A DNA stretch of 64,000 bases from an uncultured Candidatus Saccharibacteria bacterium (GTDB lineage Bacteria > Patescibacteriota > Minisyncoccia > Phycocordibacterales > DSPV01): assembly GCA_964616075.1 (NCBI GenBank), contig CAZTRA010000003.1, positions 26,075-90,074 of the forward strand. The letters run 5' to 3'. The position numbers and the translations under genes were made by a program. Below are positions 12,167 to 63,910 of the stretch, piece after piece. Position 1 is the stretch's first letter. Each line of letters starts with the position of its first letter. The notes under the pieces are model-generated. The model saw only the letters and a list, made by a program, of their open reading frames with translations. It had not been told where the DNA came from and did no database searches.

Positions 12167-12193
12167 ATCTTCAGTATAACGAACAACAACAAC

Positions 12194-13264: not shown

Positions 13265-13286
13265 CAGTGATCTCTATAATAAAGCT

Positions 13287-13685
13287 ATGATATTTCAAAA
13301 GAAACTTGCCTCTCCGCCAAAAGCCATACCTGATTGTGTGTTTTGTAATATTGTCGCCGGCACCATACCGAGCACTATCGTATACGAAGATGAAGACTTC
13401 TTGGCATTTCTAGATACACGACCCCTATCACCAGGACATACGCTCATTATTCCAAAACGACACTACCGGTGGGTATGGGATACCCCTCATGCAGGCACCT
13501 ATTTTGAAATTGCTCAAAAAATCGCCCACGCACAACAAAAAGCATTTCAAACTCCATGGATACTCTCAAAAATCGTCGGAGATGAAGTACATCATGCACA
13601 CATATGGGTGTACCCTAGTGATGATGCTTTGGGTAATAAAAAAGATTTTGCCGAAAATGCCAAAAAAATAAAAGCTGCCCTTTAG
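13287..13685 (+). CDS. HIT family hydrolase
   Basis: 132 aa. CVFCNI near the N-terminus and the histidine triad HHAHIWV. Confidence 0.8.
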   Translation: MIFQKKLASPPKAIPDCVFCNIVAGTIPSTIVYEDEDFLAFLDTRPLSPGHTLIIPKRHYRWVWDTPHAGTYFEIAQKIAHAQQKAFQTPWILSKIVGDEVHHAHIWVYPSDDALGNKKDFAENAKKIKAAL

Positions 13686-14797: not shown

Positions 14798-14799
14798 AA

Positions 14800-15558: not shown

Positions 15559-15650
15559 AAAAGGAAGTATACCATTCATGCGTACCGCAAAAAAATACCA
15601 CCTCCTCGACACGCACAAAATAAGAAAATACTAGAACAGAAAAGACTTCT

Positions 15651-17120
15651 CTATATAACCTCCTCCCAAGAAATAATCTGGTACTGATCGCTAGTAAGCG
15701 GAAACGACGGTGGCGGACCATATAAAAGATTTCCATCATAAATAATGTCACGATTCGTATAACCAGTACCATCAGTATATGCAAAACCATACCGTTGATT
15801 TGAAGCAATCATGCCATACAACGTAAGAGTCGATTTCACATGATCAGGAGCGCATGAACTAGAATAATAATACCTTCCAACACGGCCATTTTGAGAAATA
15901 AGCGCTGCATCAATACGCAACATATTAGCGCTCGCCAATCCCGCATTGATGTTGTCTTGAGAAATCAACCCAATAACATCTGAGCCGTCATAATTGGTGT
16001 AAATCAAATTTTCATTCACAGTTATCGAAGGACGCGTAGCAGGGTTATCAGGAAATCGAGCCGACGCAATAGATAATCGTGCGCTGTTAATCTGCCCTCG
16101 AATCCACAAGTTATCTTCAAGAAAAATTATACCATTTGCGGGGAATGTATAGTTTCCAAGAAAAACTCGCCCATTGTTCGTTCTAATAGTCCACGTACCC
16201 CATCCACTTTGATTTGAGGAATTAGTGCAGCCACTTGGTGCAGACATGAGCGCAGATACTCGATACAAATCATATGTATCATTAGTTTTTAATACAATTT
16301 CGTATCCCAATCCTCCCGAAGCAGCATGGTAACGACCTAAAGCTTGTGCATCAGCCTTCATTTGCGCTAAATCAGTAATAATCCCACCAAAGTTAAGCGC
16401 CGGCGCACCAATAACCCGACCTGCTTCAAATACATCTAATCGGTTTGGGGTGGTTGTAGGAGGTAGCTGTTCACTCAAAAGTCCAGCCGACGAGACACCT
16501 GTGGCAGGTGGGACGCGCACGTGAGTATGGACACCATACTCTTGACTACCACTGTGATCAGGATCATCGTATTGTAACAACGCGCTCGTGACTACATTGT
16601 GCGCAAATCCATCAAAACGAATACCTCCATTGCTATGTATAGGACCAAACACCTCGGTACCTTCACCAAATCGAATATTTACATTCGATGCTACGGCGTA
16701 TTTAGCCAACGATGGAATAGCCAAACGAACTTTTATCTTTCTCACAATAGACGGATTTGCATCAATCTGACCATCAGATTGGATCGTAACAATAGTTGAA
16801 CCAATTGAAGGTGGTGTAATTGTTAATGAAAATATGCCAATACGATGACCCTCCTTATTATAAAAAATATGATGGTAAGGACCTGGACCAGATGTGCCAT
16901 CTTGAAAATCAGTGGGTGCATGAGCCAAGTGCCACCGATAATATTCTACCCCTGCTTCTGCGATCTGAAATGCAAGCTCTCGCTCATACACCGAACGTGA
17001 CAATTTAAGGACCGAATTAGCACCGCCAACAACAGCTGTGATAAGTAAGATTGCAATGCCGGCAAACACCAATGTACTGACCAAAAAAAACCCTTTATTT
17101 TTTTGTTTTGAAAAGATCAT
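15651..17120 (-). CDS. Type IV pilin-like / minor pilin (PilX-like) protein
   Basis: 489 aa. N-terminus KG/FFLVSTLVFAGIAILL resembles a prepilin leader plus hydrophobic helix, but lacks Glu+5. Last gene of the pil operon. Confidence 0.5.
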   Translation of the reverse strand: MIFSKQKNKGFFLVSTLVFAGIAILLITAVVGGANSVLKLSRSVYERELAFQIAEAGVEYYRWHLAHAPTDFQDGTSGPGPYHHIFYNKEGHRIGIFSLTITPPSIGSTIVTIQSDGQIDANPSIVRKIKVRLAIPSLAKYAVASNVNIRFGEGTEVFGPIHSNGGIRFDGFAHNVVTSALLQYDDPDHSGSQEYGVHTHVRVPPATGVSSAGLLSEQLPPTTTPNRLDVFEAGRVIGAPALNFGGIITDLAQMKADAQALGRYHAASGGLGYEIVLKTNDTYDLYRVSALMSAPSGCTNSSNQSGWGTWTIRTNNGRVFLGNYTFPANGIIFLEDNLWIRGQINSARLSIASARFPDNPATRPSITVNENLIYTNYDGSDVIGLISQDNINAGLASANMLRIDAALISQNGRVGRYYYSSSCAPDHVKSTLTLYGMIASNQRYGFAYTDGTGYTNRDIIYDGNLLYGPPPSFPLTSDQYQIISWEEVI

Positions 17121-17123
17121 GCA

Positions 17124-17753
17124 CTATTGATTATCTTTTAAATTCCTAAATGTCATACCGCTTATAACTGAAAGTGGCCCAGGAATTTGCGACGGATCGT
17201 TATCAACCACAATGTGTACCCTCACGTGACGCACATTCTGTGTCAAAATCGGATACGCTAAAGGACTCGTCGTGCCCGTATAGTTTCTATCATAATACGT
17301 AAAAATCGGGGTGCTAGCATCATTACGTATATGATGAACAAACGTGGTAGTTTTCTCATTTGCTAATGTATACGTCAACGGTGAACCGCTCGGTTCGACA
17401 ACCCCCATCATAAGAGTACTCGTAGCGAGATAGTATCGAACACGTTCTACAATACCATCACGATCAATGTCACTAAAAAAAGTGAAAGTACTTGTTGCCG
17501 CCGTCTCTACTGGATATGCTCCTTGTTCAGAAGGAGCAAGTGATCGAATAATACGTACCATTTCTTTTACAGCTCGATTAGCCTCAAACGAAGCATCCAC
17601 ACTGCTCCCGAACATTCGATTCATACGAAATATTCCGGCCTGAAATGATGCGGACAATCCAACAATACCTGCCAAAATACCTATCACAATAATAATTTCA
17701 ATAGCTGTAAACCCTAACCGCCTCTTGTACTTCTTTTCAAAAGAAAACATCAT
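17124..17753 (-). CDS. Prepilin-type N-terminal cleavage/methylation domain protein (pseudopilin)
   Basis: N-terminus RRLG/FTAIEIIIVIGILA is a class III signal peptide (G-FT.IE). Confidence 0.7.
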   Translation of the reverse strand: MMFSFEKKYKRRLGFTAIEIIIVIGILAGIVGLSASFQAGIFRMNRMFGSSVDASFEANRAVKEMVRIIRSLAPSEQGAYPVETAATSTFTFFSDIDRDGIVERVRYYLATSTLMMGVVEPSGSPLTYTLANEKTTTFVHHIRNDASTPIFTYYDRNYTGTTSPLAYPILTQNVRHVRVHIVVDNDPSQIPGPLSVISGMTFRNLKDNQ

Positions 17754-17760
17754 AGTAAAA

Positions 17761-19557
17761 CTAGGGCGTTAGCACCACTTCAACTGGTTGCCAGTCACTG
17801 GAAATCGTTGTGGTTGCAACCTGTGTTGTATATCCTTCTTTAGATACTGACAATTCATAATCGCCACTTGCTAACCCATCAAATGTCACTTGCCCTGGAG
17901 CAACACAGTCTGAAGTAAACGTAAACGCAACATCTGATACATTTGGAGTAAAAGAAGTTGATGCCGTTGATAACAATAACTTATACCGAATATAACGATC
18001 CCCGCTATGAGACGCGTGAATAGTTGTTGTCCCAATCTCATAATACGTCGCGCTCGTTCCATCGGGACCAATAAAATTCCACGTACCACCATCATTGTTT
18101 GAAGCTAACTGAAACCGTACACTCTGTAGCCCAGTCTCTGGCAATTGAGACGTTGGCCACCATGATAAATCGTGAAAATTGCTTACTGATCCAGTATCAA
18201 ATGCAGAAGAAATTAATTCTCCCGCGGAATCATACACACCAAACGTATCCCGTAATCGTACTTCCCCTACCGAACTATGTACCGACACGGATCCATCGGA
18301 GCTAAAATAACGAGTTGTATCAGTGGTTGTTGCTTGCCCCGCTCCACCTGACCAATCAGTTTGTGCCAAAAAACCTCGACCAGTAATCAATGTTTCATCA
18401 ACAGCTCCTCCCACTAACCGAACACTGGTACCTGAAATCGGAAGACTTGTTGCCCCATCTTTCACAGTCACCATAAGCGATCTAGGGTTCTTTGCTGATA
18501 CAATAAAATCAACATTTTTTGTTTCCCCGGGTAATAACACCACCGGAGAAAGTGCATTGGTACCAATCAATTGGTACGCTGCGTCAATAACATTAAGAGT
18601 ATAGGTATCCCACACGACATCATTCAACTGTTTGTGGCCAGTTTCATCGGTCTCCAAAGTAGCTTCATATAATTTCACATCAGGCGATGTCCCAATAAGC
18701 TTACTTCCCGAGAATGAAAAATCAAAGTCTGGTATTGGAGTACATGATTGAGTCATCGAACGGAGATGAAAAACACTTGCCCGATCAATAGACATAGTAA
18801 TCGCAGTTACTGTTTCTGCGGCAACCGTTGCATGTGGCTTAATAGGATTTGGATTACCAACAGCACCACGCGACCGTGTCATATCTGTTGTATACCCATC
18901 TTTAGTAACCGTAATCTGATACGTCTCAACCCCAGGTGGTATGTCAACGAGCTGCAACATACCATTCACATTCGTACTATCATCAATCACAATAGGAAAT
19001 GTTGTTGAACCGTTCTCAACATGGACCGACGCCCCTGATACCGGCAAACCACTTCCATCAACAACATTGATAAACAATGCTCCATTTGTTGTAGATGAGA
19101 TTTCTAGATTCTTGGGGGCAACAAAAGTTGCTACAGAAAATGATGATACATTTTCACACGAAGGACATGCAACTGTCACATCAACGAACTTATAGTCAGC
19201 GGGCGCGGTATCATTCGGTGTACCCCCAAGTAACCCATCGAATGGATCGTCAATATTGCGGATTACCGTCGTGACATCAAATGAAATATTATTTCTAACA
19301 AAAGTCTCTGACGGATCAATCAGACCTCGCGGAATACCCGTCAATGTTCCCACGTTTGCATACGACAAATTACGAATGACTTCAATACGTTCATTAGCAA
19401 GCGCCATTGCAACAGAACGAACACGCGACACTGCAATTAAATCAAATAACTTAACGTACGTCGCATACACCGCCAAAAAAATAATGGTAAAAATCGTCAC
19501 CGAGACAACTGTCTCAATAAGAGTGAACCCTGCGGATGTATTCTTTTTTAGAACCAT
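17761..19557 (-). CDS. Large prepilin-type protein (598 aa). Possible pilus tip or adhesin subunit.
   Basis: N-terminus SAG/FTLIETVVSV is a class III signal peptide. It is followed by ~560 aa of beta-rich, Thr/Ser/Val-rich sequence. Confidence 0.65.
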   Translation of the reverse strand: MVLKKNTSAGFTLIETVVSVTIFTIIFLAVYATYVKLFDLIAVSRVRSVAMALANERIEVIRNLSYANVGTLTGIPRGLIDPSETFVRNNISFDVTTVIRNIDDPFDGLLGGTPNDTAPADYKFVDVTVACPSCENVSSFSVATFVAPKNLEISSTTNGALFINVVDGSGLPVSGASVHVENGSTTFPIVIDDSTNVNGMLQLVDIPPGVETYQITVTKDGYTTDMTRSRGAVGNPNPIKPHATVAAETVTAITMSIDRASVFHLRSMTQSCTPIPDFDFSFSGSKLIGTSPDVKLYEATLETDETGHKQLNDVVWDTYTLNVIDAAYQLIGTNALSPVVLLPGETKNVDFIVSAKNPRSLMVTVKDGATSLPISGTSVRLVGGAVDETLITGRGFLAQTDWSGGAGQATTTDTTRYFSSDGSVSVHSSVGEVRLRDTFGVYDSAGELISSAFDTGSVSNFHDLSWWPTSQLPETGLQSVRFQLASNNDGGTWNFIGPDGTSATYYEIGTTTIHASHSGDRYIRYKLLLSTASTSFTPNVSDVAFTFTSDCVAPGQVTFDGLASGDYELSVSKEGYTTQVATTTISSDWQPVEVVLTP

Positions 19558-19558
19558 A

Positions 19559-20776
19559 TCAAATTGCGTTGACTAACGAATACGTCGGCATAATCATCGC
19601 GAGCGCAAAAAACCCAACAGCTGCTCCGATAAAAATCATAAGGAATGGCTCAATAATCGAGGAAAGGTCTTTCGTTTTCTGGTCAACTTCATTCTCATAA
19701 AATGTTGCAACACCTTCAAGCATCTCCCCAAGTTTTCCTGTTTCTTCACCAATTGAAACCATCTCACCAACCAAAGGTGGATACAATTTTTCGTTTGCCT
19801 CAAAAATTGCCGCGATCGGATCACCTTTTTTAATGGCGTCTTTAGCGCTACTTAATATCTTTTTAAAGAAAATATTTTGTACAACATTTTCAGTAATCTC
19901 CATAGAAAGAACTACATCAACCCCCGCCGAAAGGAGTGAAGAAAGAGTGCGTGCGGTACGCGCAGCATTTGTTTCTTTTATTAGTACACCAATAATTGGT
20001 ATCTTTAGTAAAGCAAAATCAAAAAAACGTTTAGTTACCTTTGCTTTCGTCCCAACATACATACCAACACCAAGCAGAATCACTCCCAAAATAAAGATGA
20101 TCGTCTGTTCGCGTAAAAAATCAGAAATACCAATAATAAGCCTCGTCATCCACGGCAATTCAACATTTAATTCTTTAAACGTGGCTGTTAATGTTGGCAC
20201 AACAAACACAAGCATCAACACACCAATGAGTATCATTAAAAACATGATAACTGCCGGATACATAAGAGCCCCTCGCACTTTTTTTTGTAGTAAATACACT
20301 GCGTTCATCTGATCACTCACATTCCTGAGAGATTTAGACAAGGTACCACTCTCTTCACCGGCACGAACCATAGAAACAAAAAGGTTATTAAATACATTTG
20401 GATACTCAGCGAGCGCATCCGAAAGAGTTTTACCCTGCTTCACACGCATATTCACCTCTACCACAATGCGATTAAAACGTACCTGTCGAATTTGTCGCTC
20501 CATAACAGTCAGTGCTCGTGAAAGCGGCAATCCAGCATCCAACATGGCCCCAAGGTTACGGGCAAACACAATACGTTCGTGTAACGGAACACCGCCAAAA
20601 CGAGAAAGAATCCCTTTCAATGAAAATCGCGCGTTACTTTCAACTTCCTCAACTGAAGTTACCGCGACACCTTCCGTACGCAAACTCCGATACAATGCAA
20701 ACTTATCAATAGCCTCGCGAGTTCCTGTCGCGGCCGACCCATCACTATTTTTCCCTTTGTATATAAATTGTGGCAT
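19559..20776 (-). CDS. pilC: Type IV pilus assembly platform protein PilC (GspF family)
   Basis: 405 aa. Two GspF repeats and three TM segments. Operon position after pilB. Confidence 0.85.
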   Translation of the reverse strand: MPQFIYKGKNSDGSAATGTREAIDKFALYRSLRTEGVAVTSVEEVESNARFSLKGILSRFGGVPLHERIVFARNLGAMLDAGLPLSRALTVMERQIRQVRFNRIVVEVNMRVKQGKTLSDALAEYPNVFNNLFVSMVRAGEESGTLSKSLRNVSDQMNAVYLLQKKVRGALMYPAVIMFLMILIGVLMLVFVVPTLTATFKELNVELPWMTRLIIGISDFLREQTIIFILGVILLGVGMYVGTKAKVTKRFFDFALLKIPIIGVLIKETNAARTARTLSSLLSAGVDVVLSMEITENVVQNIFFKKILSSAKDAIKKGDPIAAIFEANEKLYPPLVGEMVSIGEETGKLGEMLEGVATFYENEVDQKTKDLSSIIEPFLMIFIGAAVGFFALAMIMPTYSLVNAI

Positions 20777-20781
20777 GTATA

Positions 20782-22542
20782 TTACTCAGACACAACGCGA
20801 AGCACTTCTTCAATCGATGTAATACCTTGCGCGGCAAGAAAAATACCATCTTCAATCATCGTCAGCATACCTTCTGACTTGGCTTGTTTTTCAAGGTCCG
20901 CTGTTTGTGCACCACGAATAATAAGCTCTTTGATTGCGGGAGATACCTTCAATACTTCGTGGATACCCGTACGTCCCGCGTACCCATCTTCGGCCTTAGG
21001 TGACGGTTTTGGTTTAAAGAACGTAATGTCAGTCCAGTCAGCATTTTTCTCAACAACCTTTTCCGCTTTCAATGCAGCCATTACCCGATCAAGTTCAACA
21101 GACTTGCGAAGTGATGCTACATCATCTTTTGTTAATTTATATGGCTCCTTTGGGTCTGAGAGGTGACGCACCAAACGCTGACCAATCACTACCTTCAGAG
21201 TAGAGACCAACAAAAATGGCTCAACTTTCATATCAACCAAGCGAGCAACGGCTCCAGCTGCTGAATTAGTATGTAACGTTGAAAGTACTAAGTGACCAGT
21301 GAGTGACGCATTTACAGCAAGAGATGCGGTCTCATTGTCACGAATTTCACCAACCATAATAATGTCTGGGTCTTGACGCAACAAAGAACGTAATCCGTTC
21401 GCAAACGTGAAGCCAATCTCGGGCTTCACCTGTGTTTGATTGATACGTTTCATCTGATACTCAACCGGATCTTCGATTGTGGAAATGTTAACGTCTGGTG
21501 TATTCACAATATCAAGCAACGTATAGAGCGTAGTTGTTTTACCACTTCCTGTAGGACCAGTAGTCAACAACATACCTGTGGTTTGTTTTGTTGCCTGATG
21601 GAGTGACTCCAAAGCATCCCCATGAAACCCGAGACCTTCTAACGTGTATCCAGAGACACTCTCACGCAATAAACGCATGACAATCTTTTCACCGTAATAA
21701 ATCGGTAATACTGAAACGCGAAATGATACCTTCTCTGTCTCGGTCTCAACACGAAACCGTCCGTCTTGCGGCAGACGTTTCTCATCAAGCTTCAAGTTTG
21801 CAAGTACTTTAATACGTGCCGCAATTGATGAACTACTCGATTTGGGCAACACCATAGTGTCATGCAACATACCATCGATACGATAACGAACTACCACCTC
21901 CTTCTCCATCGGTTCAATATGAATATCAGACACATTCTGTAAAATGGCATGTTTAAGCAACGTATCCACAATGCGCACCACTGGCAGATCCTCTGCCATT
22001 TTCTTCAAATCACTCTCGGACTCGGCTGCAGATTCCCCATCTTCTGAGAGCGAAACTGCTTTTAATGATGCTGTTTCCTTTTCGATAATATCTCCGAATT
22101 CAGCCTTGAGTGACTTTTGATATTGAAGGAGACACGATTTAATTGATTCAACATTCGTAAGCCGAGGCAACACTTTCAAACCAACTTTTTTCTTAATAAA
22201 ATCAACAGCCGACAAATCATCCGTATCGAGCATCGCCGCTTCAAGTGTTCTATCACCACGTTTATATGCCACAACATTGTGAGTACGCGCGATCGGCTCA
22301 GGAATTAATGAGAGCACATCAAAATCAATTTTCTGACCAGAAAGATCAACAAACGGAATACCGAGCACATATGCTTGCATCCGACGCCAATCATCTTCTG
22401 TTAATTTTCCATTAGTCACCAGAACATCGCCAGGTGATTTCTTCTTTTTTTCAGCCTCCAACTCAGCCTTCTCATAATCTTCTTTTGAGACGAGGCCCGA
22501 ATCAAGAACAAAGGCTTTTAATTGCGATTTTTCAATATACAT
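20782..22542 (-). CDS. pilB: Type IV pilus assembly ATPase PilB (GspE family)
   Basis: 586 aa. Walker A GPTGSGKTTTLY, and the Asp and His boxes of GspE ATPases. Confidence 0.9.
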   Translation of the reverse strand: MYIEKSQLKAFVLDSGLVSKEDYEKAELEAEKKKKSPGDVLVTNGKLTEDDWRRMQAYVLGIPFVDLSGQKIDFDVLSLIPEPIARTHNVVAYKRGDRTLEAAMLDTDDLSAVDFIKKKVGLKVLPRLTNVESIKSCLLQYQKSLKAEFGDIIEKETASLKAVSLSEDGESAAESESDLKKMAEDLPVVRIVDTLLKHAILQNVSDIHIEPMEKEVVVRYRIDGMLHDTMVLPKSSSSSIAARIKVLANLKLDEKRLPQDGRFRVETETEKVSFRVSVLPIYYGEKIVMRLLRESVSGYTLEGLGFHGDALESLHQATKQTTGMLLTTGPTGSGKTTTLYTLLDIVNTPDVNISTIEDPVEYQMKRINQTQVKPEIGFTFANGLRSLLRQDPDIIMVGEIRDNETASLAVNASLTGHLVLSTLHTNSAAGAVARLVDMKVEPFLLVSTLKVVIGQRLVRHLSDPKEPYKLTKDDVASLRKSVELDRVMAALKAEKVVEKNADWTDITFFKPKPSPKAEDGYAGRTGIHEVLKVSPAIKELIIRGAQTADLEKQAKSEGMLTMIEDGIFLAAQGITSIEEVLRVVSE

Positions 22543-22954
22543 AATAGAGCAGTAGTGTCTCTATTATAGCAAGCAAACATCATACCTTGTTGTTGTGATG
22601 TGGAAGAACATATCTTATCGACTTCTAAATACTTTAATAACCACGTAGATAACTATAGACCATAAAATTTCGTGTATTAATTTTTATCAATTATGTAAAA
22701 ACAAATTAAACACCTCGTATAAAATAATCCACCAAATATCCATCATAAAAATAGTGTTGCAGGTTTCATACAAATATCCACCACAACATATATATAAAAA
22801 GGAGGAGCTCTACACAGAGCGCTTTAATAAATTAAACATATCATTGATTTTTATTTATTTTTAGACTATTATCATAGTAGAATCCTGAAAATAGACGCTC
22901 GGTACCCGCGACGCGGATTACCACTTAGAGCTCTTTGAAAACGAAAGGAAAAAC

Positions 22955-54448: not shown

Positions 54449-55333
54449 TTGATACACTCGATATTACCAAACATGACTACACAAGAAACACCATTTGAAC
54501 CTGCAAAAAAATCCTTGGGGCAACACTTTCTCACCAACCCTGCCATTGCCACCAGTATCACCGAAGCAGCAGAAGTATCATCTCGAGACACTGTTGTTGA
54601 GATTGGACCTGGAAGAGGCATACTCACCAAAGCACTGATTCCCGTGGCACGAGATATAATTGCAATTGAAAAAGATGAGCGCCTCTTATTTCGTTTGTCG
54701 TTCGACTTTAAAAAAGAAATTACTGAAAAAAAACTTATTCTAATAAGAGATGACGCCCTCAATTTTAATCCTCAACAATACCATCTCCAACCAAGGGGGT
54801 ATAAACTTGTCGCTAATATTCCGTACTACATTACTGGTGCAATTATCAGAAAATTCCTTGGAGAACCAACATACCCAAATACCATGACACTCATGATTCA
54901 AAAAGAGGTTGCCGATCGTATTGTTGCAAAGAAAAAAAAGGAAAGCCTCCTCTCTATTGCTGTAAAAGTGTACGGTGAACCACGCTACATACAGACAATA
55001 AAAGCGGGAGCATTTTCACCTCCTCCTTCAGTTGATTCGGCAATCATTTCAATAAAAAATATCTCTCACGAGTATTTTAAAACAACTGACTCGAATATAT
55101 TTTTTACCATTGTACGTACAGGTTTTGCCCAAAAAAGAAAACAGCTTATTTCAAATCTATCCCGTATCATTGATAAAAACTACGTGCGCATAGCCCTGCA
55201 ATCAGCAACATTACCAGAAAATATTCGCGCTGAGGACGTGTCTCTTGAAAATTGGAAAATAATTATCTCCCAACTTGTTCCTTATTTTAAAAAAGAAACC
55301 ACGTTACAATCCAAAACCCCTCATATACTCTGA
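54449..55333 (+). CDS. rsmA: 16S rRNA (adenine1518/1519-N6)-dimethyltransferase RsmA/KsgA
   Basis: Contains LGQHFL, VVEIGPGRGILT and NIPYYIT. Confidence 0.85.
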   Translation: MIHSILPNMTTQETPFEPAKKSLGQHFLTNPAIATSITEAAEVSSRDTVVEIGPGRGILTKALIPVARDIIAIEKDERLLFRLSFDFKKEITEKKLILIRDDALNFNPQQYHLQPRGYKLVANIPYYITGAIIRKFLGEPTYPNTMTLMIQKEVADRIVAKKKKESLLSIAVKVYGEPRYIQTIKAGAFSPPPSVDSAIISIKNISHEYFKTTDSNIFFTIVRTGFAQKRKQLISNLSRIIDKNYVRIALQSATLPENIRAEDVSLENWKIIISQLVPYFKKETTLQSKTPHIL

Positions 55334-56556
55334 CCGTACAATGTCGGAAGTGAACCCATTATAGTAAAACAGGTGATACCTGCATATACGGCACAAATAC
55401 CGGCCGCTGGAGTAAATAACCCTAAATAAAATCCTCCTGGTACTGTAGAACCCGTAATTGGCACAAAACCTGGAGGAAAATAAACCAAACCACCACCGCC
55501 ACTACCACCAAAAAGAGTAAGAAGATTGAGAGTACCTCCTCCGCAGGTACAGACCATAACAATCGACGCATTAAGTCCACCTCCTGAAAGCTGAGCTTCT
55601 GCCTTTTGTGGAACCACACTTACACGAGAAAAAAGTTTTGTTGTGTTTTCGAAAAATCCACTCAATCCACCTTCAAACAGAACATGTCGGGCGGCACGTA
55701 ATAATAATTTTTGATTTTCTGTAGATCCGTTACTATTACTAACACTCACATGAAACAAATCATCAAGATCGTAGAGTGATTTACCGTTTTTTGCCAACAT
55801 GGTCGCTAAATCAACTTCATTTTTCATATCCTTATATGGCCGTACCACATCCTCAAGCGTTGCTCCTGCCGCTCGAACAGGTGTCTCTATTTGAGACAAA
55901 ATATCAGTCGGAAGGGCTCGCAATTCTTCAAGTGTCATCGTACGAGCAACAGGGGCCTTATATTGAAATACGATCGTTTTCCCATCAACAGAAGGAATAT
56001 TCTCAAATGTTCGTACCAAAAGACCAGAACCGATATCTATTTTGTTACCTGTTGGAGTAAAACCGTCACCGGTAATAGTCACCATATCTCCTGAGCGCAC
56101 TCGGGTAGGTGAAATAGCTGTTATCACAATTTTTTTTGAAGTAGTTGCCGTCTTCATTTCTGATAGCTTTGTTTTTATGGGTTTAGTTTCACCCTGTGTC
56201 ACAATCGAAGTAATAAACCGTTGTTCAAAACTTTGCAATTTTGCCCGCGTTAATGTGCCCACATATCCCGTAGCGGTAACCAGACCAGCAGGATCTAAAA
56301 TCTCCTTTTTATACTTATTCTGAAAACGAACAACTGCATCATTCGTTCGTGTACCAAAATAATCAGTTTCTTGCCCTGGAGAACCTGGGCCAGAAGAAGT
56401 AACATATGTATCAGGATCTGTATTAAGGACTATCTGTAACGCGCGGACATCTGGCCCACGATCACCAATTTTTAAATTCCGCACAAACGCCGCCTCTGTA
56501 ACAAAAGGAAGTACTATAACGCACCACAGGAAAACAAGAACAATAACACGCTTCAT
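55321..56556 (-). CDS. Secreted protein with peptidoglycan-binding (PG_binding_1-like) domain, Ig-like segment and Gly/Cys-rich hydrophobic C-terminus
   Basis: Signal peptide. LKIGDRGPDVRALQIVLN…FGTRTNDAVVRFQ matches PG-binding. The C-terminal 90 aa are Gly-rich with CTCGGG. Confidence 0.45.
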   Translation of the reverse strand: MKRVIVLVFLWCVIVLPFVTEAAFVRNLKIGDRGPDVRALQIVLNTDPDTYVTSSGPGSPGQETDYFGTRTNDAVVRFQNKYKKEILDPAGLVTATGYVGTLTRAKLQSFEQRFITSIVTQGETKPIKTKLSEMKTATTSKKIVITAISPTRVRSGDMVTITGDGFTPTGNKIDIGSGLLVRTFENIPSVDGKTIVFQYKAPVARTMTLEELRALPTDILSQIETPVRAAGATLEDVVRPYKDMKNEVDLATMLAKNGKSLYDLDDLFHVSVSNSNGSTENQKLLLRAARHVLFEGGLSGFFENTTKLFSRVSVVPQKAEAQLSGGGLNASIVMVCTCGGGTLNLLTLFGGSGGGGLVYFPPGFVPITGSTVPGGFYLGLFTPAAGICAVYAGITCFTIMGSLPTLYGQSI

Positions 56557-56633
56557 AAGAATATTTTATTATTCTACCTCTAAACTGTTTGAAATTCGAT
56601 AAAGGAAAGTGATAAAAAGGGTATAATGCTAGT

Positions 56634-57584
56634 ATGAAGGGAAAACTTATACTTACCTCAATACTTATTGGTATATTTTTTGTCACCGGAGCATTATTTA
56701 TCACCGCGATTAATGGTACAGCCACCACACAGTCCACCGAGACGCAACACGCTGTTTTAGACAAGACCGCACAAGCATTCGCTGCAACTTATGAAGATAG
56801 TGATAGTGATGATTTATCAGATTGGGAGGAGCGTTTATGGAAAAGCGATCCTTTAAAATCAGATACTGATGGCGATGGAACAAATGATGGTGAGGAAATT
56901 AAACAAAAACGAGACCCGACAACAGCTGGGCCACAAGACACTATAAGCTCACTCATAGCCAGCTCTACAAACAAAACAAAAAGTGTTGAAGAATCTCCTT
57001 TTATGAAAGGTTCTTTTGCTGAATCATTCGCACAAACATACATTGCTATGGGACAAGGGGCCCCGTGGTCAGAAAAACAAAAAATTGAACTTGCGGAAAA
57101 GCTGCTAACAGAAATACAAGGAAACGATGTTTTACAAACCAAAAAGGTTCTCTCTTTACAACAACTCACGCGCACTGATAGTAATACACAGCAGTCATAT
57201 GGCGCATATGCATCGGGATTTAAAGAGCGCCTGAAAGAGAATCGCCCAACAGAGCCAGAAAATGAAGCAGTAGTATTACAACGAGGGCTTGAAACAAAAA
57301 ACCGTATTGATTTTGAAAAATTAGGAGCAATTGCTCTCTCCCACGAGAAAACTGCAGACGCGTTATCTCTACTTCCCACACCATCAGGGCTTGCCGTTGT
57401 TCACCTTGAACTCATTAACGCTTTCTATGATATTTCAATCGCAGTCTATGGAATGCAACGTGCTCAAAATGACCCCATTGCTGGACTTGCTGGAATTCAA
57501 CGGTATGCTCCTGCACAACAACGACTTGCCGCGGCTTTGATATCTTTAAACAACGAACTTAAGAAGAACGGCGTATCATTGTAA
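56634..57584 (+). CDS. Hypothetical membrane-anchored protein with Asp-rich calcium-binding-like repeat
   Basis: N-terminal TM. DSDSDDLSDWEERLWKSDPLKSDTDGDGTNDGEE. No other known domain. First ORF upstream of the T4SS-like operon. Confidence 0.45.
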   Translation: MKGKLILTSILIGIFFVTGALFITAINGTATTQSTETQHAVLDKTAQAFAATYEDSDSDDLSDWEERLWKSDPLKSDTDGDGTNDGEEIKQKRDPTTAGPQDTISSLIASSTNKTKSVEESPFMKGSFAESFAQTYIAMGQGAPWSEKQKIELAEKLLTEIQGNDVLQTKKVLSLQQLTRTDSNTQQSYGAYASGFKERLKENRPTEPENEAVVLQRGLETKNRIDFEKLGAIALSHEKTADALSLLPTPSGLAVVHLELINAFYDISIAVYGMQRAQNDPIAGLAGIQRYAPAQQRLAAALISLNNELKKNGVSL

Positions 57585-57648
57585 GACACTTACAAAAACA
57601 GTAATACACAACTAGAAAAAATTAGGACACCTCATCGAGGTATAATGA

Positions 57649-59937
57649 GTGGTGCATTTCATGAGAGCGCTCCTAACATTGGCGAAGGATTTACTAAGAC
57701 ATATCAATCTTTCTGCATTGATGGTCCTTGTTTTTCTTTTTTCGGCAATAATGTGTAATCCAAAATCGGTCCTTGCTGGTTTTGTTCCAGTATTAGACAG
57801 CGCGGTTGTTGCAGAACTCTCAGCGCTTAATGCCATACAAGCAGAGCAGGCTGCCATGAGTACGCAACTCACCTTAAAAGAAATTTTGCTTGACGGTGTT
57901 GTATTCGGACTTATTAACACTTTAATTGATCAATTAGGAAACGAGGTGGTCAACTGGATTAATAGTGGTTTTGAAGATACTCCAATGTTTGTTCAGGATC
58001 CTGGAGGGTTTATGTTAAATGCAGCAGATCAAGCCAGTGGCAGACTCATCGCCGAAATGGGTCTTGAAAACTTTATCTGTGACCCTTTCATGCTTCCCTC
58101 ATTACAACTTGCACTGAACCTAAATTTCGGCGTAAACACCGGACGTTGGCAAAGAGATTACTACTGTACATTTAGTCGAGCAAAAAATATTCACTCAGAA
58201 ACCTTTATGAGGGGTGATTTTGCTGGTGGTGGAGGATGGGACGCGTGGGTTGATATGTCAGTCCGAAATCAAAATGTAATCGGTGCATCAGGTGCTGCTG
58301 GCCTTATGATGGATAGACGTATCGCTACAATTCTTGGCATAGAGCAAGATAAGCTCAACTGGAATAAAGGCTTCTTCTCTGCGACAAATATTGAAGGCTA
58401 TATCAAAACACCTGGAACTGTCATTGAAAACAAATTAAACGACACCTTTGATTCAAGTTCACGTCGTATTGAGGTTGCTGATGAAATCAGTGAAATCATT
58501 GGGGCTCTCATTAATTTAGCAATGAAGAGCCTTATGACCGGCCTCGCATCAAACAGCAGCTCAGCTACCAACTACAGCGCTCAATACAGCGCTAATACCA
58601 CCTATTCAACCACTGATTACCAAAACCTTAAAGGAAGTGGTGTGTTATTACCTCCAGAGACTACGTCTAGCAATATACCAACATTCAGTGGAGGGCCCGC
58701 TGTAAACCAGATTTATGCGCAATCAAATTATCAGGGTCCTTTAATACATGACGACCATGGATGGCCAAACCGTATCCAATACGCAAGCCTCGCTACTGAT
58801 GGTAACAAAAATGCCCAGATGTATTATTCGAGCATGTCATACAACAACGACCCTACCGGAATGGCGTGGTGGAAGGGTGTTTTTGAAACAAGACAAAATT
58901 TTAGTGAATTAAAAATAACAACCGCACTTGATTACTACGATAGTCGTGATTGGAAGAATTGGGTTCGAACGGACAACTTACGACCTCGTTTTTATACCAT
59001 AAACCAAAATTCTGGTATTGAAACTGAAGTAGTTAACACAAAAGACGCTTCAGGAAATGTGGTCCCCATCACGTGTCGCATCCATTACATAAATTCGAGT
59101 GGAAATCCAGCAACTACCGCGGGTTGCATTTTACCTCTTTTGCGTGTTGAATCATTTCGTATAGAACTCGTTCACCCCGTATCAGCTGATGTGGTGCGCA
59201 TCGAACGTCCAAGATACCTCGCTTTAAACGAAATTGAGTTCTTTAGAAGAAGTGGTCCCTCATTTTTGGCGTCACAAAGCACTTCCACAACCATCGGATC
59301 AGTATTTAATCCATTCTTTGGTATTTCAGCTAAAGATATAAATGGTGTCGCAATACCAATAACCGCGGCTGTCACTGCTCCTTTTGCAAGCACTAGCTAT
59401 CTTACATATGCCCCTGATGGAACTATTCGACCGTTTATGTTAAACAACGGTAATATTGTTTCTTCTTCAAACACCCTAGGAAACTGGCGCTTTGTATACC
59501 TGGCAAGTGACGCGTACGGCATATTATCACAACCTATGGAGCGTATCATTACAGTTCGAGCACAAGCGACCGCCTCAAGAAAAGAACCTCTTATACTGAT
59601 TGACGGATCAATCCCAACCGCAACACAAACTATTGACATAAGTGGGCAATCAATGCTTGTTGCGATCGGCGATTCACTTACTATCACCAGGGGAGATTCT
59701 TTTGACCCGTTCCAAAAAATAAGCGCTCGTGACGCCGAGGGTACTTCCTATTCCGACTCAACAGTTCCGGGCATCCGAGTTACGTACTCTCGAAACGCCC
59801 CGGGCAGTAACACCTTTCTCTATGAGACCATATTTGATAGCAACAAACCGGGCACGTGGCGTGTCATTTTCGACTTTACTGATCGTTACGGCGCCACCGC
59901 ACTCCCAGTACTGCGAAGTGTGGTAGTAAACCCATAA
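57649..59937 (+). CDS. Large membrane-anchored surface protein (762 aa) with discoidin-like and Ig-like (DUF5011-type) C-terminal domains
   Basis: N-terminal TM. LALNEIEFF is a galactose-binding-like (discoidin) signature. The last ~110 aa resemble a bacterial Ig-like domain. Sits 1 bp upstream of the VirB6-like gene. Confidence 0.5.
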   Translation: MVHFMRALLTLAKDLLRHINLSALMVLVFLFSAIMCNPKSVLAGFVPVLDSAVVAELSALNAIQAEQAAMSTQLTLKEILLDGVVFGLINTLIDQLGNEVVNWINSGFEDTPMFVQDPGGFMLNAADQASGRLIAEMGLENFICDPFMLPSLQLALNLNFGVNTGRWQRDYYCTFSRAKNIHSETFMRGDFAGGGGWDAWVDMSVRNQNVIGASGAAGLMMDRRIATILGIEQDKLNWNKGFFSATNIEGYIKTPGTVIENKLNDTFDSSSRRIEVADEISEIIGALINLAMKSLMTGLASNSSSATNYSAQYSANTTYSTTDYQNLKGSGVLLPPETTSSNIPTFSGGPAVNQIYAQSNYQGPLIHDDHGWPNRIQYASLATDGNKNAQMYYSSMSYNNDPTGMAWWKGVFETRQNFSELKITTALDYYDSRDWKNWVRTDNLRPRFYTINQNSGIETEVVNTKDASGNVVPITCRIHYINSSGNPATTAGCILPLLRVESFRIELVHPVSADVVRIERPRYLALNEIEFFRRSGPSFLASQSTSTTIGSVFNPFFGISAKDINGVAIPITAAVTAPFASTSYLTYAPDGTIRPFMLNNGNIVSSSNTLGNWRFVYLASDAYGILSQPMERIITVRAQATASRKEPLILIDGSIPTATQTIDISGQSMLVAIGDSLTITRGDSFDPFQKISARDAEGTSYSDSTVPGIRVTYSRNAPGSNTFLYETIFDSNKPGTWRVIFDFTDRYGATALPVLRSVVVNP

Positions 59938-59938
59938 C

Positions 59939-62041
59939 ATGAATATTTTTCTCACAAAAATAAAACAAGTGCGCACTTTCATACTCGGAATTCTTTTTTG
60001 TGCCTTAGCTCTAAGCCCAACTTCAGTCTTTGCTAACGCAGGATTTGTACCATTCGGCATTGAATGGATTGGGATCCCTTCTGCTATTGGTACCGCCATC
60101 ACCGCAGGTCTTTCATCTGCGGGAGACCTGATTATAGAAGCAGCTGCACTAAAGCTTTCAAGTCTTGCTGGTTTCTTGGTATGGCTTTCAGGAAAAATGC
60201 TTGATTGGATTGTAAATTTTACCATTATTGAAGGTGTCTCTTTATTAAACAATACTGGTATGTCAGGAGCCATTAATGAAACGTGGGTTGTCTTCCGTGA
60301 TCTGGGCAACATGTTCTTCATCTTTATTATCCTCTATTTGGCATTCCAACTCATTTTGGGTATCGGCAGCGGACACTGGCGCTCATTGGGATGGATTATT
60401 GTTATGGCTCTCGTCATAAACTTTTCTCTTTTCTTCACGAAAGTGATCATAGATACCTCCAACCTTCTCGCACTGACCTTCTACGAACCAGTATTTAAAG
60501 CAAAAGGGGGCGTAGCATTTACCTTCATGAGTCAGTTAGGGCTACAAACAATCTGGAATATTAACGACGCGAATTCGGTTGCTTCTCTTTTTGGAGCAAA
60601 TCAAACATCTGCGGGGAACAAAATTATTGTTCTTCTTGGCGCAACAACACTATCAGTTATTGTTGCCTTTATTTTCTTTGCCCTTTCAATATTACTTATT
60701 GTACGTTTTGCCTACCTCATTTTTTTGATGATTTTTTCTCCTCTTGCCTTTGCGTGCTATGTCATACCAGGAGCACGAGGCTATTTTGGCCAATGGTGGA
60801 ATAAACTTATTCAACAGGCATTTTTTGCTCCCGCCGTCTTTCTACTCCTTTTTGTTTCCTTCAAAATACTTGGTGGTGTTGTGACAACATTAGGAAATTT
60901 GGGAAGTTTTGGATCACTTCTAGTAACATTCGACTCAAAATCATTGCCTATTCTGTTTAACTTTGGACTTACTATCGTTATGTTCCTCTATTCACTCACC
61001 CTTGCTATGAATATGGGTATGGTGGGAGCACAAACAACCATCGCGTGGGGCAAGTCTCTCAACACACGATTCAATAAAAGCCTTAAGTCTGGGGGTTCGT
61101 TTATTGGAAGAAATACCGTGGGAGCTTTGGCGCGCTACGCATCGGAACAAGAGGGGGTAAAAAGGTTTGCGCGCATTAGCCCAACAACCGGCCAACTTAT
61201 GTATGACGGTCTCAACAAGTTGCAGGGGGTTGGGGGTAAGGGAAAAACATTGGCCGACGTTGAGGACGAGGCTGTTAAAAAACAGACCAAATTCATTGGG
61301 TGGGCAACATCTTCAGCCCCAATTAGACCAAAATGGTTTTCAAACCTGACACCTGAAGAAAAAGGTGAACAAAAACCAGAAGAAAAACTCTCAAACCAAG
61401 AAACAGCAGCACTTACCGCCCTTAAAGAGCACTCTGGGGCAGTAGCCAGGGAACGTTCCACCGCTCAGGCAAAATTAAGCGAACTCAAAGCTGAACAAAA
61501 AATTATCCAGGATCGACTCACACTCATTAAAACAAACCCTCTTAAAGCAGCTACCGATTACGCCGCTGATCTTCCTGTTGGAAAAAACTTAGGTCAACTT
61601 CAGTCAGAATTAGAGACACGGGCACAAACACTGATTACATCCATCACTGATATGGAAAAACACAGCAACGATTTACAAGAATCTCTCGCGGTTGCCGAAG
61701 GGCGTAAGCAAGATCTTATCGCTCGAGGACAATCCCGACTAGATGATGAAAAAAGAGCGGGGGACAGAAAAGATGAGGAACAAAAAGAAAAACTTGATGA
61801 AATAGGTAAAAGAATGGGCACATCAGTGTCTCCACAAACCAGAGCATTGTGGAAAAAGTCTTTTGATACCTATAGTGATGGGATAAAAAAGAGACAAAAC
61901 AAAAAGAAACAGCAACAAAACAAGAGTACAAATAATACAGGGGAGGTCTTGAATATAAATGACATAGATTCGTTTGAAGATTTACCTGAAGAAATTCAAG
62001 ATCTTGCAAAAAAGGCATTAGATAAGAACAAAACCACGTAA
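59939..62041 (+). CDS. Polytopic membrane protein with VirB6/TrbL-like topology and long Lys/Glu-rich coiled-coil C-terminal tail
   Basis: 700 aa. Signal peptide, ~100-aa extracytoplasmic segment, 5-6 TM helices, then ~300 aa of charged coiled-coil. Gene order before PrgI-like and VirB4-like ORFs mirrors PrgH. Confidence 0.45.
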   Translation: MNIFLTKIKQVRTFILGILFCALALSPTSVFANAGFVPFGIEWIGIPSAIGTAITAGLSSAGDLIIEAAALKLSSLAGFLVWLSGKMLDWIVNFTIIEGVSLLNNTGMSGAINETWVVFRDLGNMFFIFIILYLAFQLILGIGSGHWRSLGWIIVMALVINFSLFFTKVIIDTSNLLALTFYEPVFKAKGGVAFTFMSQLGLQTIWNINDANSVASLFGANQTSAGNKIIVLLGATTLSVIVAFIFFALSILLIVRFAYLIFLMIFSPLAFACYVIPGARGYFGQWWNKLIQQAFFAPAVFLLLFVSFKILGGVVTTLGNLGSFGSLLVTFDSKSLPILFNFGLTIVMFLYSLTLAMNMGMVGAQTTIAWGKSLNTRFNKSLKSGGSFIGRNTVGALARYASEQEGVKRFARISPTTGQLMYDGLNKLQGVGGKGKTLADVEDEAVKKQTKFIGWATSSAPIRPKWFSNLTPEEKGEQKPEEKLSNQETAALTALKEHSGAVARERSTAQAKLSELKAEQKIIQDRLTLIKTNPLKAATDYAADLPVGKNLGQLQSELETRAQTLITSITDMEKHSNDLQESLAVAEGRKQDLIARGQSRLDDEKRAGDRKDEEQKEKLDEIGKRMGTSVSPQTRALWKKSFDTYSDGIKKRQNKKKQQQNKSTNNTGEVLNINDIDSFEDLPEEIQDLAKKALDKNKTT

Positions 62042-62045
62042 TACT

Positions 62046-62807
62046 ATGCCAAACGATCTCATCACTATTGTCCGAGAAAATATCACCCATGGACCAAGTG
62101 ATATTCAGCTACTCGTCACGGCACCAGAAATAGACCGTGTACCACAATCTATTGGACAAAAATACATGTTTGATCAGGAGGATACTCTGATTATAAAAAA
62201 TGCCGCAATTTTAACACTTGCTGGTATATTACCTCCACAAGATATCCCCGCGCACCTCAGTGATGTATTAAACTTATCCAATGCTCAATCACGAGAGATC
62301 GCCGAAGAGCTTGATATGAAATTATTTGCAAGAGTCAGAGTATCTCTTGATAGTCTCTATTCAAATATTGAGTTAAAAAAACCTGAGTTGATACTCCCTC
62401 CACCTCCACCTCCGCCACCAGCTGCACGCCGCGCAATTCCCACACACACCATCGTTTCCACACCCAACAATCAATCTGTACGTCCTGTAGATATCAATAC
62501 TGGTATACAAACAACAATCAAAACAATTACCCCTTTGCCGAAACCTACCTTACAAACAAACACTGATACACAAATTAAAAAAACACCTTTTAACACACCA
62601 GCTCTCACGTTGCCCACTACTCCACCTGCGACCTCTGATAACATGGGAACAAAGGGGTCTTCCATAAACACCGACCTTAGTGATGATATTTTATCTGCAA
62701 AACTTTCAAAACCTATAAATAATCCTTCATCAAACGAAAAAGCAATTGGTAAAGGATTAAAAGCTCGCACTTATCACATTGACCCCTATAGAGAACCCGT
62801 GGAATAG
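62046..62807 (+). CDS. Hypothetical proline-rich protein (PPPPPPPP tract)
   Basis: 253-aa ORF within the operon. Low-complexity Pro/Thr-rich centre. Confidence 0.4.
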   Translation: MPNDLITIVRENITHGPSDIQLLVTAPEIDRVPQSIGQKYMFDQEDTLIIKNAAILTLAGILPPQDIPAHLSDVLNLSNAQSREIAEELDMKLFARVRVSLDSLYSNIELKKPELILPPPPPPPPAARRAIPTHTIVSTPNNQSVRPVDINTGIQTTIKTITPLPKPTLQTNTDTQIKKTPFNTPALTLPTTPPATSDNMGTKGSSINTDLSDDILSAKLSKPINNPSSNEKAIGKGLKARTYHIDPYREPVE

Positions 62808-62847: not shown

Positions 62848-63288
62848 GTGCGATTTCAAGTACCCCAATATATCGAAGTTGAAGATAAAATTTTTGGGCC
62901 ATTAACACTCAAACAATTTTTGTATCTTATTGGTAGTGGCGGCATGGCATTCGTTGCTTACCGTTTTCTTGGTTTATTTATAGGTTTACTTATTGGTATT
63001 CCTATTCTTATTTTTGGTTTACTTCTTGCGTTCTATAAACACAACCACAAACCATTTGTGTTTTTAGTGGAAGCTGCACTTAGATACACCGCTAAACAAA
63101 AACTTTATCTCTGGAGAAAAATTGATAAACCCACTATTAGCCAGCAATCTTCAAATTCCCAAACACCGCTCTTTGTTCCAAAATTGTCACAAGATAAACT
63201 AAAAGATGTAACATGGGGCATAGCTACAAAAGAAAATATTTTAACCGAGCACGCTCCAGGAAAAAACATCTCTTCAACACAGATATAA
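62848..63288 (+). CDS. PrgI-family (VirB3-like) two-TM protein
   Basis: 146 aa. N-terminus QVPQYIEVEDKIFGPLTLKQFLYL is followed by two TM helices, matching the PrgI pattern (…VPKD…E.KIFGLTLRQF). Confidence 0.5.
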   Translation: MRFQVPQYIEVEDKIFGPLTLKQFLYLIGSGGMAFVAYRFLGLFIGLLIGIPILIFGLLLAFYKHNHKPFVFLVEAALRYTAKQKLYLWRKIDKPTISQQSSNSQTPLFVPKLSQDKLKDVTWGIATKENILTEHAPGKNISSTQI

Positions 63289-63292
63289 TCTT

Positions 63293-63910
63293 ATGGCACT
63301 AAAAGCAAATCCTTCTCAAAAATTTGTTCCTTTAAAAGAAATACGGGATGGTATCGCAACACTTAACGATGGTGGGTTGCGAGCGGTGCTTATGACGTCT
63401 TCTATTAATTTCGCCCTCAAATCAACAGAAAACCAGGAGGCGATTATTCTTCAATTTCAAAACTTTTTAAACTCTCTTGATTTCTCACTACAAATCGTTA
63501 TCCAGTCTCGTCGACTCGACATACGACCTTATATTGCGCTTTTAAATGAAAGAAAAAAAGCCCAAACAAATGAATTAATGAAACTCCAAATAAATGAGTA
63601 TATGGAGTTCATTACATCATTCACAGAAGCGACAAATATTATGACCAAAAGCTTTTTTGTAATCGTCCCCTACACACCCACCCTTCAAATCGCCCCCTCT
63701 ATCGGTTTATTTGGAAAGAAAAACGATAATGAAGATACAAAAAAAATAACCCCCTTTGAGGAGGGTCGCTCTCAACTTGAACAACGTATGTCAGTAGTTG
63801 AACAAGGATTAGCCCGTTGCGGTTTGCGCGTTGTTCGTTTAGGAACCGAAGAAGCAACTGAACTTTTTTATCGACTTTTTAATCCAGGAGAGAAAGAAAA
63901 ATCTCTTTAA
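63293..63910 (+). CDS. VirB4/TrbE N-terminal-domain-like protein (ORF terminates after 205 aa. The ATPase domain may be in the next ORF.)
   Basis: FVPLKEIRDGIATLNDGGLRAVLMTSSINFALKSTENQEAIILQFQNFLNSLDFSLQIVIQSRRLD resembles the conserved N-terminal region of Gram-positive VirB4-like ATPases (PrgJ/TcpF type). Confidence 0.4.
   Translation: MALKANPSQKFVPLKEIRDGIATLNDGGLRAVLMTSSINFALKSTENQEAIILQFQNFLNSLDFSLQIVIQSRRLDIRPYIALLNERKKAQTNELMKLQINEYMEFITSFTEATNIMTKSFFVIVPYTPTLQIAPSIGLFGKKNDNEDTKKITPFEEGRSQLEQRMSVVEQGLARCGLRVVRLGTEEATELFYRLFNPGEKEKSL

Follow-up and report, generated by a model that had tools for sequence, protein, structure and literature searches.

The 64,000-nucleotide stretch analyzed here (the window), taken from the forward strand of contig CAZTRA010000003.1 of an uncultured Candidatus Saccharibacteria bacterium, carries toward its downstream end genes of a type IV secretion system (T4SS). 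Among them lies an open reading frame (ORF) at 57649-59937 whose product is the subject of this study. A sequence-only reading had described this product as a membrane-anchored protein of 762 amino acids (aa) with discoidin-like and Ig-like domains, coupled to the gene of a VirB6-like protein and possibly the substrate- or host-recognition component of the locus. That description lacked an N-terminal, predicted all-alpha domain of ~260 aa, and it is this domain that ties the protein to the T4SS, the lectin-like and Ig-like part being a lineage-specific add-on. The gene and its product comprise the following features.

57649..59937, + strand: whole ORF, 762 codons from GTG 57649, stop codon TAA at 59935-59937
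57661..57777, + strand: predicted Sec-type signal peptide, aa 1-39, predicted cleavage VLA/GF (hydrophobic segment aa 14-32; 131 aligned relatives)
57778..58554, + strand: conserved N-terminal domain (N-domain), aa 40-298, predicted all-alpha (conservation, low-confidence model, profile searches)
58555..58830, + strand: Ser/Thr/Asn-rich linker, aa 299-390, predicted disordered (34% Asn+Ser+Thr; pLDDT < 50 over model residues 1-60)
58831..59250, + strand: predicted jelly roll of the discoidin / F5/8 type C / CBM32-like kind, aa ~391-530 (model strands 61-199; Foldseek)
59260..59559, + strand: predicted Ig-like domain 1, aa ~534-633 (model, Foldseek)
59590..59934, + strand: predicted Ig-like domain 2, aa ~644-758 (model, Foldseek; weak match to PF16403, Bact_surface_Ig-like / DUF5011)
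59935..59941, + strand: stop/start junction TAA-c-ATG with the VirB6-like gene (sequence; family-wide junction distances)

An ORF check of the window returned the same coordinates and length as the earlier reading. An alternative start at ATG 57661, which is used by the database copy P0001, would give a protein of 758 aa, and the GAGG at 57637-57640 could serve either this codon or GTG 57649. A single base separates the TAA from ATG 59939, the start of the 700-aa next gene, as had been noted before. No terminator-like sites were found on the + strand between the three genes spanning 56634-62041, and a promoter-like site (56543-56572) lies 5' of the first of the three (56634-57584). The protein is indeed rich in Asn, Ser and Thr, which together make up 24% of the whole sequence and are most conspicuous in the linker. 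Its C-terminus, ...LPVLRSVVVNP, shows neither an LPXTG motif nor a hydrophobic tail or a charged end, and Pfam and NCBIfam scans of the protein returned no match other than PF16403 at E = 0.11.

Conserved placement within a T4SS locus

The ORF is embedded in a run of genes on the same strand.

56634..57584, + strand: TSP3-repeat protein, 316 aa, with one N-terminal transmembrane (TM)/signal anchor (78 of 81 loci; promoter-like site upstream)
59939..62041, + strand: VirB6/TrbL-like polytopic membrane protein, 700 aa, with a signal peptide, ~6-7 predicted TM segments and a charged C-terminal tail (TM prediction; synteny)
62046..62807, + strand: Pro-rich protein, 253 aa, weakly conserved (locus comparison)
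62848..63288, + strand: PrgI / VirB3-like protein (Pfam PF12666, E = 1.7e-9)
63293..63910, + strand: TrsD/TraC-like protein, related to the N-terminal part of VirB4 (family scans, locus comparison)

We compared this arrangement across 81 non-redundant related loci. In 78 of them the immediate upstream neighbor of the family gene is a TSP3-like homolog, and in 76 its immediate downstream neighbor is a VirB6-like homolog, the exceptions being mostly contig ends. Homologs of PrgI/VirB3 and of the TrsD/TraC-like VirB4 N-terminal protein follow further downstream wherever the locus extends far enough, and the order TSP3-like, family gene, VirB6-like, PrgI, VirB4 N-terminal part is retained in 76-78 of the 81 loci. 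Spacing is tight as well, with 60% of the family-to-VirB6 junctions and 70% of the TSP3-to-family junctions falling within +/-15 nt. The close coupling to the VirB6-like gene proposed from a single junction therefore recurs throughout the related loci, and the adjacency of the two genes is not due to chance. Because of this synteny, we regard the N-domain as a part of the T4SS locus that is conserved among the related Patescibacteria examined, and not as a passenger.

Several neighboring genes deserve comment. The TSP3-like product combines an acidic repeat of the TSP3 type (Ca-binding) with a helical C-terminal half; its gene is probably the first of the operon, and the protein itself appears to be an unrecognized conserved partner of the T4SS. 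A homolog of the VirB6-like protein in a related locus (L002) matches Pfam TrbL_3. The Pro-rich product of 62046-62807, encoded between the VirB6-like and PrgI genes, contains a poly-Pro stretch and neither a TM segment nor a domain match; a homolog is recognizable in 29 of 83 loci, and a gene of similar size usually occupies that position. The VirB4 ATPase gene starts after 63293..63910 and runs past the end of the window. In a distant relative (L002 8737-12540 and L003 6300-10103), the VirB4 ATPase gene contains an intein with a LAGLIDADG homing endonuclease and encodes a 1,267-aa product.

Export signal and domain organization

The earlier reading had interpreted the hydrophobic segment near the N-terminus as a membrane anchor. 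The segment is real (aa 14-32) and is followed by VLA/GF, i.e., the pattern of a signal peptide. When the presequence boundary was aligned across 131 relatives (median presequence length 33 aa), residue -1 was Ala in 124 and residue -3 was Ala, Thr, Val or Ser in 126, and a Lys or Arg was present within the first 12 residues (n-region) in 126. The target is thus predicted to be Sec-exported, its presequence displaying the n-region, h-region and AxA-type site of a classical cleavable type I signal peptide, and the export signal on which the earlier proposal hinged appears to be in place. Since the type I signal-peptidase pattern is conserved among these relatives and no further TM segment is predicted after the signal peptide in the target, the protein is presumably secreted, and the membrane-anchor reading was rejected. 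The conserved Cys pairs described below would fit an extracytoplasmic location of the protein.

The tetrapeptide GFVP occurs three times in the 26,603 ORF residues of the window, in each case in one of the adjacent genes 55321-56556 (-), 57649-59937 (+) and 59939-62041 (+), and two of the three occurrences directly follow predicted cleavage sites (VLA/GFVPV and FANA/GFVPF). The target and the VirB6-like protein share GFVP behind their signal peptides; homologs, those of the VirB6-like protein included, do not keep it, so that it is probably a coincidence or species-specific, and we set it aside. The first of these genes (55321-56556, - strand) has a secreted product of 411 aa that carries PG_binding_1 and IPT/TIG domains and is found in the same position in a syntenic locus (L001). 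A signal-peptide-like junction, 'PQKAEAQ', precedes its C-terminal ~90 residues, a hydrophobic tail that is rich in Gly and contains several Cys.

The N-domain (aa 40-298) defines the family. In the target it contains a start that is a degenerate form of the VirB5/TrbJ/TraI type (FVPVLDSAV), WINSGFxxxPxF, a Cys140/Cys169 pair, GGW, TPG and ADEIxEI. Across the family, the invariant or near-invariant positions are W-I-N-S-G-F-x-G-x-P-x-F, two Cys, G-G-W, G-x-G-F-x-S, T-P-G and A-D-E-I-x-E-I, and the near-invariant acidic residues are D78, D123, D274 and E278. Full-length homologs of the target number only eight, and all other relatives share aa ~40-298 alone. A word-indexed search with the N-domain profile returned 265 proteins; an exhaustive search returned 6,279 representatives at 50% identity with E <= 0.001, of which 3,594 had E <= 1e-30, and the family comprises at least 6,279 such clusters. 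In the best 150 listed (proteins of 306-1,077 aa), the signal peptide is immediately followed by the domain, which begins ~20-70 residues into the protein, or 128 in one case. It is encoded on at least 489 genome stretches of a collection with one genome per species, and the named records among the best 80 matches are all Patescibacteria (Saccharibacteria, Paceibacteria, Kaiser-, Zambryski-, Taylor- and Wolfebacteria); no homologs were found in 72,556 plasmids. No Pfam or NCBIfam model spans the domain, sequence searches of the PDB with N-domain profiles gave only chance-level matches, and our literature search found no paper describing the family, which is very large and undescribed. An AlphaFold model built from 135 sequences is all-helical and opens with a 55-residue helix (pLDDT 62, pTM 0.35).

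The C-terminal half (aa 331-758) was modeled with AlphaFold from eight orthologs. The model comprises the disordered linker and three beta-sandwiches, with a mean pLDDT of 74 that rises to 80-90 within the folded parts. Foldseek searches of this model against the PDB, the check by which the earlier proposal of a galactose-binding-like domain was to be judged, supported that proposal at the level of the fold: matches at a probability of 1.00 included an F5/8 type C domain (3nng), the CASPR2 discoidin domain (5y4m), pneumococcal fucose-binding modules (2j1r, 2j22), the lectinolysin lectin (3lei) and a CBM32 (7jnd), the last of these and the fucose-binding modules extending the similarity at the fold level to carbohydrate-binding modules (CBMs). 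The LALNEIEFF motif that had suggested such a domain is present at aa 520-528 (59218-59244) and forms the final strand of the predicted jelly roll. Tandem Ig-like arrays, i.e., Moritella chitinase, Sap S-layer, SiiE, InlK and GhpA, were also matched at a probability of 1.00.

Sequence profiles give a fainter picture. The target has no match to PF00754 or PF22633 at E <= 1, and a PDB sequence search with the C-terminal half gave chance-level matches only; F5_F8_type_C_2 (PF22633) is found below threshold in five of the eight orthologs (best E = 4.3e-4), and F5/8 type C matches reach E = 4.2e-9 in more distant family members. The DUF5011-like segment proposed for the C-terminus holds up as an Ig-like fold and less well as a named family, PF16403 scoring 13 bits on the target against a cut-off of 27 and occurring below threshold in six of the eight orthologs (best E = 0.001), with 62 bits in the family member P0013. 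Overall, the model supports a jelly roll followed by two Ig-like domains, an adhesin-like half that is ordinary in fold. It resembles discoidin, F5/8 type C, CBM32 and F-type lectin modules at aa ~391-530 and DUF5011-type Ig modules at aa ~534-758, and differs from surface proteins of these kinds in remaining below Pfam thresholds and in being joined to a T4SS-specific N-domain.

The two halves of the protein diverge at different rates. Among the orthologs of the target, identity is 53-62% in the N-domain, 36-44% in the Ig domains and 23-26% in the lectin-like domain, which is thus the fastest-diverging part. The C-terminal modules vary, as ORFs with the N-domain measure anywhere between 319 aa (the domain alone) and 1,162 aa; Pfam domains in the C-terminal region among 84 diverse members are Bact_surface_Ig-like (5), F5/8 type C (2), SdrD_B (1) and a GH5 cellulase (1). 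Judged from sequence, the pattern is that of a constant, putative docking module combined with a fast-evolving, putative recognition module.

Resemblance to VirB5, TrbJ and TraI minor pilins

Members of the VirB5 family are characterized by an elongated helical-bundle fold (TraC 1R8I / TrwJ 8RT9), a pentameric arrangement on VirB6 and a location at the pilus tip. According to reviews, VirB5 caps the pilus, preassembles as a pentamer on a pentamer of VirB6 and is lacking in Gram-positive systems (PMC12857230, PMC12624023), and a 2025 preprint identified PrgF as a VirB2-like pilin of pCF10 and found no VirB5-like protein there (bioRxiv 10.64898/2025.12.18.695078). A survey of Patescibacteria T4SS found VirB2-, B3-, B4-, B6- and TrsD-like genes, encountered VirB5 only in one Gram-negative-type system, and detected neither adhesins nor a PrgB homologue (PMC12102498).

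The placement of the target gene before the VirB6-like gene is the same as that of trbJ, traI and virB5. In the reference systems, trbJ immediately precedes trbL or, in some plasmids, is separated from it by the small gene trbK, traI is flanked by traG/VirB4 and traJ/VirB6 (TraI genes from plasmids), and virB5 lies just before virB6 (pTi). Many family members resemble these proteins at the mature N-terminus as well. TrbJ starts as AxA/IVFDPSN, Bacteroidota TraI/DUF4141 as AQ/WVVSDPGN and pTi VirB5 as ARA/QFVVSDPAT, and the corresponding motif [IVLF]xD.xN was found at residues 16-75 in 100 of 267 family members, 66 of which have VxDPxN, compared with 8.5 in shuffled sequences and 18 in a control window. 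The AQ/WVV-DP-N start of Bacteroidota TraI (DUF4141, PF13605), whose gene adjoins that of VirB6 (TraJ), recurs in family members too.

Profile searches point in the same direction. Pfam DUF4141 (PF13605) matched the first ~50 residues of 12 of the 84 members at E <= 0.001, and two members scored singly reached 35-36 bits, the gathering score being 30 bits. Among 18,950 NCBIfam models, TrbJ was the most frequent family match (8 of 84 members at E <= 0.01, best 4.4e-7), with single members scoring down to E = 4.6e-6, and none of 60 signal-peptide-bearing neighbor proteins (TSP3-like and VirB6-like N-termini) gave a TrbJ or VirB5 match. As a yardstick, authentic VirB5 matched the TrbJ model at E = 0.0038 over residues 4-53 only, TraI matched the VirB5 and TrbJ models at E = 5e-5 and 1.5e-4 through its N-terminus only, and hhalign aligned TraI with TrbJ over 53 columns at 48% probability; a protein search started from the TraI alignment brought in nothing beyond close Bacteroides TraI proteins and no added diversity. 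Because authentic VirB5 and TraI themselves match the TrbJ/VirB5 models only weakly and N-terminally, the N-terminal resemblance of the family, which is sub-threshold against the TrbJ and VirB5 models, appears to be of the same kind and strength as that among accepted members of this divergent group.

The family shares with VirB5/TrbJ (PF07996; PRK13860, PRK13874, TIGR02780) Sec export, an AxA site, V-x-D-P-x-N a few residues later in a subset of members, predicted helicity and a gene immediately upstream of the VirB6/TrbL gene, and the adhesin or tip role proposed for VirB5 is akin to that considered here for the target. It differs from VirB5/TrbJ in that no similarity was detected beyond ~45 residues, in the larger size of its N-domain (~260 aa vs. 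~180 aa for mature VirB5), in its own invariant motifs and disulfide-type Cys pairs, in the large C-terminal modules fused to it, and in its monoderm-type (MPF-FATA-like) setting, from which no VirB5 has been reported. Bacteroidota TraI, by comparison, is a single-domain protein of ~210 aa. Membership in the VirB5 family is accordingly not established, and our claim is limited to position, export, N-terminal signature and likely role.

Proposed role and competing explanations

The best reading of these data, to which we assign a probability of about one half, is that the protein combines a docking subunit of the VirB5-like kind with a lectin/Ig module that binds the host. It would be exported by the Sec system and cut after VLA (aa 39), leaving a mature protein with no membrane segment, in which the N-domain would act as a fixed structural subunit of the Patescibacteria T4SS. 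The N-domain could dock from outside the cell onto the VirB6-like platform, or at the tip of a VirB2-like pilus growing from that platform, and so play the part of the VirB5/TrbJ/TraI minor pilins of diderm systems. The C-terminal half probably recognizes the host cell: the disordered Ser/Thr/Asn linker would project the lectin domain and the two Ig-like spacer domains, whose folds the model supports, away from the cell, where they may bind a surface glycan or another envelope component of the host bacterium, and this binding would target or stabilize the T4SS contact on which epibiotic Patescibacteria reportedly depend. The N-domain would then be a constant adaptor and the C-terminal modules the exchangeable specificity part. 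More tentatively, we suggest that the family as a whole could be the missing VirB5 equivalent of the monoderm-type Patescibacteria T4SS and cap the VirB6-like platform or pilus as an oligomer, with swappable lectin, Ig, SdrD-like or glycosidase modules setting the host range.

Two known T4SS proteins come close to this proposal in part. Helicobacter CagL, a VirB5-like protein that binds integrin as its host receptor through a motif inside its helical domain, is similar in concept as a VirB5-type subunit that also carries host recognition, and differs from the target in having no appended lectin or Ig domains. CagL is listed in the VirB5 column of a published table (PMC12624023). The PrgB adhesin of pCF10 is likewise a surface adhesin encoded in a monoderm T4SS operon, as proposed for the target, yet it is wall-anchored through LPXTG, a motif that the target lacks, has other domains and is not encoded adjacent to VirB6. 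Patescibacteria T4SS pilins, in turn, resemble TraE/DUF4134 of Bacteroidota (S. epibionticum supplementary table).

A number of observations weigh against a VirB5-like docking subunit with a host-binding module. The target itself matches none of the TrbJ, VirB5 and DUF4141 models, its motif being degenerate (VLDSAV, with neither Pro nor Asn), and family members score no more than 26 bits against TrbJ/VirB5 models with curated cut-offs of 100-346 bits, part of the score being supplied by signal-peptide residues. With hhalign, the family aligned to TrbJ or TraI over 16-19 N-terminal columns at 1.5-2.2% probability (19 columns and 2.2% for TraI), and no similarity to VirB5 was detected in the remaining ~200 residues, which include WINSGF, GGW and TPG. 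The N-domain model is of low confidence, and Foldseek found no fold match for it in the PDB. For the C-terminal half, ligand binding by the lectin-like domain is putative, and no conserved binding motif could be assigned in it. The T4SS cluster of S. epibionticum ML1 (SEML1_0006-0019) contains two VirB6-like genes and one NTF2-like gene; no family member is evident there by annotation tables alone, protein sequences not having been compared, and these tables contain no DUF4141, TrbJ or VirB5 labels. Finally, no pilin gene was found within the 64-kb window.

Two further observations concern pilins. In the syntenic locus L001, a 395-aa protein encoded three genes after VirB4 (19780-20967) has a sub-threshold match to T4SS_pilin (PF18895, E = 2.4e-4, residues 73-126) and may carry a VirB2-like pilin domain; the counterpart position in our genome lies beyond the end of the window. 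Within the window, a cluster of large genes at ~10400-22600 (-) resembles a type IV pilus or type II secretion system-type locus, and a 209-aa ORF in this - strand cluster (17124-17753) has a prepilin-type N-terminus GFTAIEIIIVIGIL.

The N-terminal likeness could also be convergent, e.g., through the requirements of the signal-peptidase site or of a first helix, and the protein a new extracellular T4SS subunit peculiar to Patescibacteria, with no evolutionary tie to VirB5, that serves for instance as a cap, wall-spanning conduit or scaffold of the VirB8/VirB9 type and whose C-terminal part would still be adhesive. In favor of this reading, only the first ~45 residues resemble TrbJ/TraI, the core motifs have no counterpart there, the N-domain is longer than mature VirB5, and the synteny demands machine membership only. 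We consider it less likely than the VirB5-like reading, as motif, post-cleavage position, all-alpha prediction and pre-VirB6 placement coincide across TrbJ, TraI, VirB5 and the Patescibacteria families, and the absence of matches among the 60 control proteins argues that the profile hits are no general signal-peptide effect.

The all-alpha N-domain with its four near-invariant acidic residues, together with one family member carrying a GH5 cellulase domain and others carrying CBM-like domains, could instead suggest a T4SS-associated cell-wall or glycan hydrolase of a novel kind, i.e., a functional VirB1 analogue that opens the epibiont wall or the host envelope and uses its lectin and Ig domains as CBMs targeting polysaccharide. 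Also in favor of such an enzyme, VirB1 homologues rarely adjoin virB4 in most Patescibacteria classes (PMC12102498). However, searches of Pfam, NCBIfam and PDB sequences gave no lysozyme, transglycosylase or peptidase match even at E <= 10, and Foldseek found nothing; S. epibionticum has its separate lysozyme and peptidase genes after virB4, and a hydrolase would leave both the TrbJ/TraI-type N-terminus and the strict pre-VirB6 placement unexplained. This explanation is quite improbable.

The protein could also be a toxin or other secreted effector, or a surface adhesin of general function, that is encoded in the operon without belonging to the machine. Its signal peptide, adhesin-type folds and variable C-termini would be compatible with this reading, which is very improbable and was rejected on synteny: the gene keeps a fixed place between two machine genes, with reading frames that overlap or abut, in at least 76 of 81 divergent loci. 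The N-domain is also far more conserved than the C-terminal part, and T4SS substrates are not typically exported by Sec. Of the earlier suggestion of a substrate- or host-recognition component, the recognition role within the T4SS locus remains plausible, whereas a substrate is unlikely because the protein is predicted to be Sec-exported and its gene is syntenic in nearly all related loci examined.

The T4SS is essential for epibiotic growth in the one genetically tractable Patescibacterium, and its parts include VirB2-like pilins (PMC10633639, PMC12857230). What is new here is an unrecognized N-domain family with VirB5-like features in a monoderm-type T4SS. Because its members are predicted to be secreted, are syntenic as described, and combine a minor-pilin-type N-terminus with swappable, putatively surface-binding modules, the family is a concrete candidate for the interface of the Patescibacteria T4SS with the host cell and offers a handle on the host specificity of epibionts. 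The DUF4134-like pilins and the DUF4141/TrbJ-like N-terminus described here also link the Patescibacteria machine to Bacteroidota and P-type systems. If the more tentative proposal of a missing VirB5 equivalent is correct, the family would be the host-range determinant of the essential Patescibacteria T4SS, deciding to which hosts these organisms attach and on which they feed.

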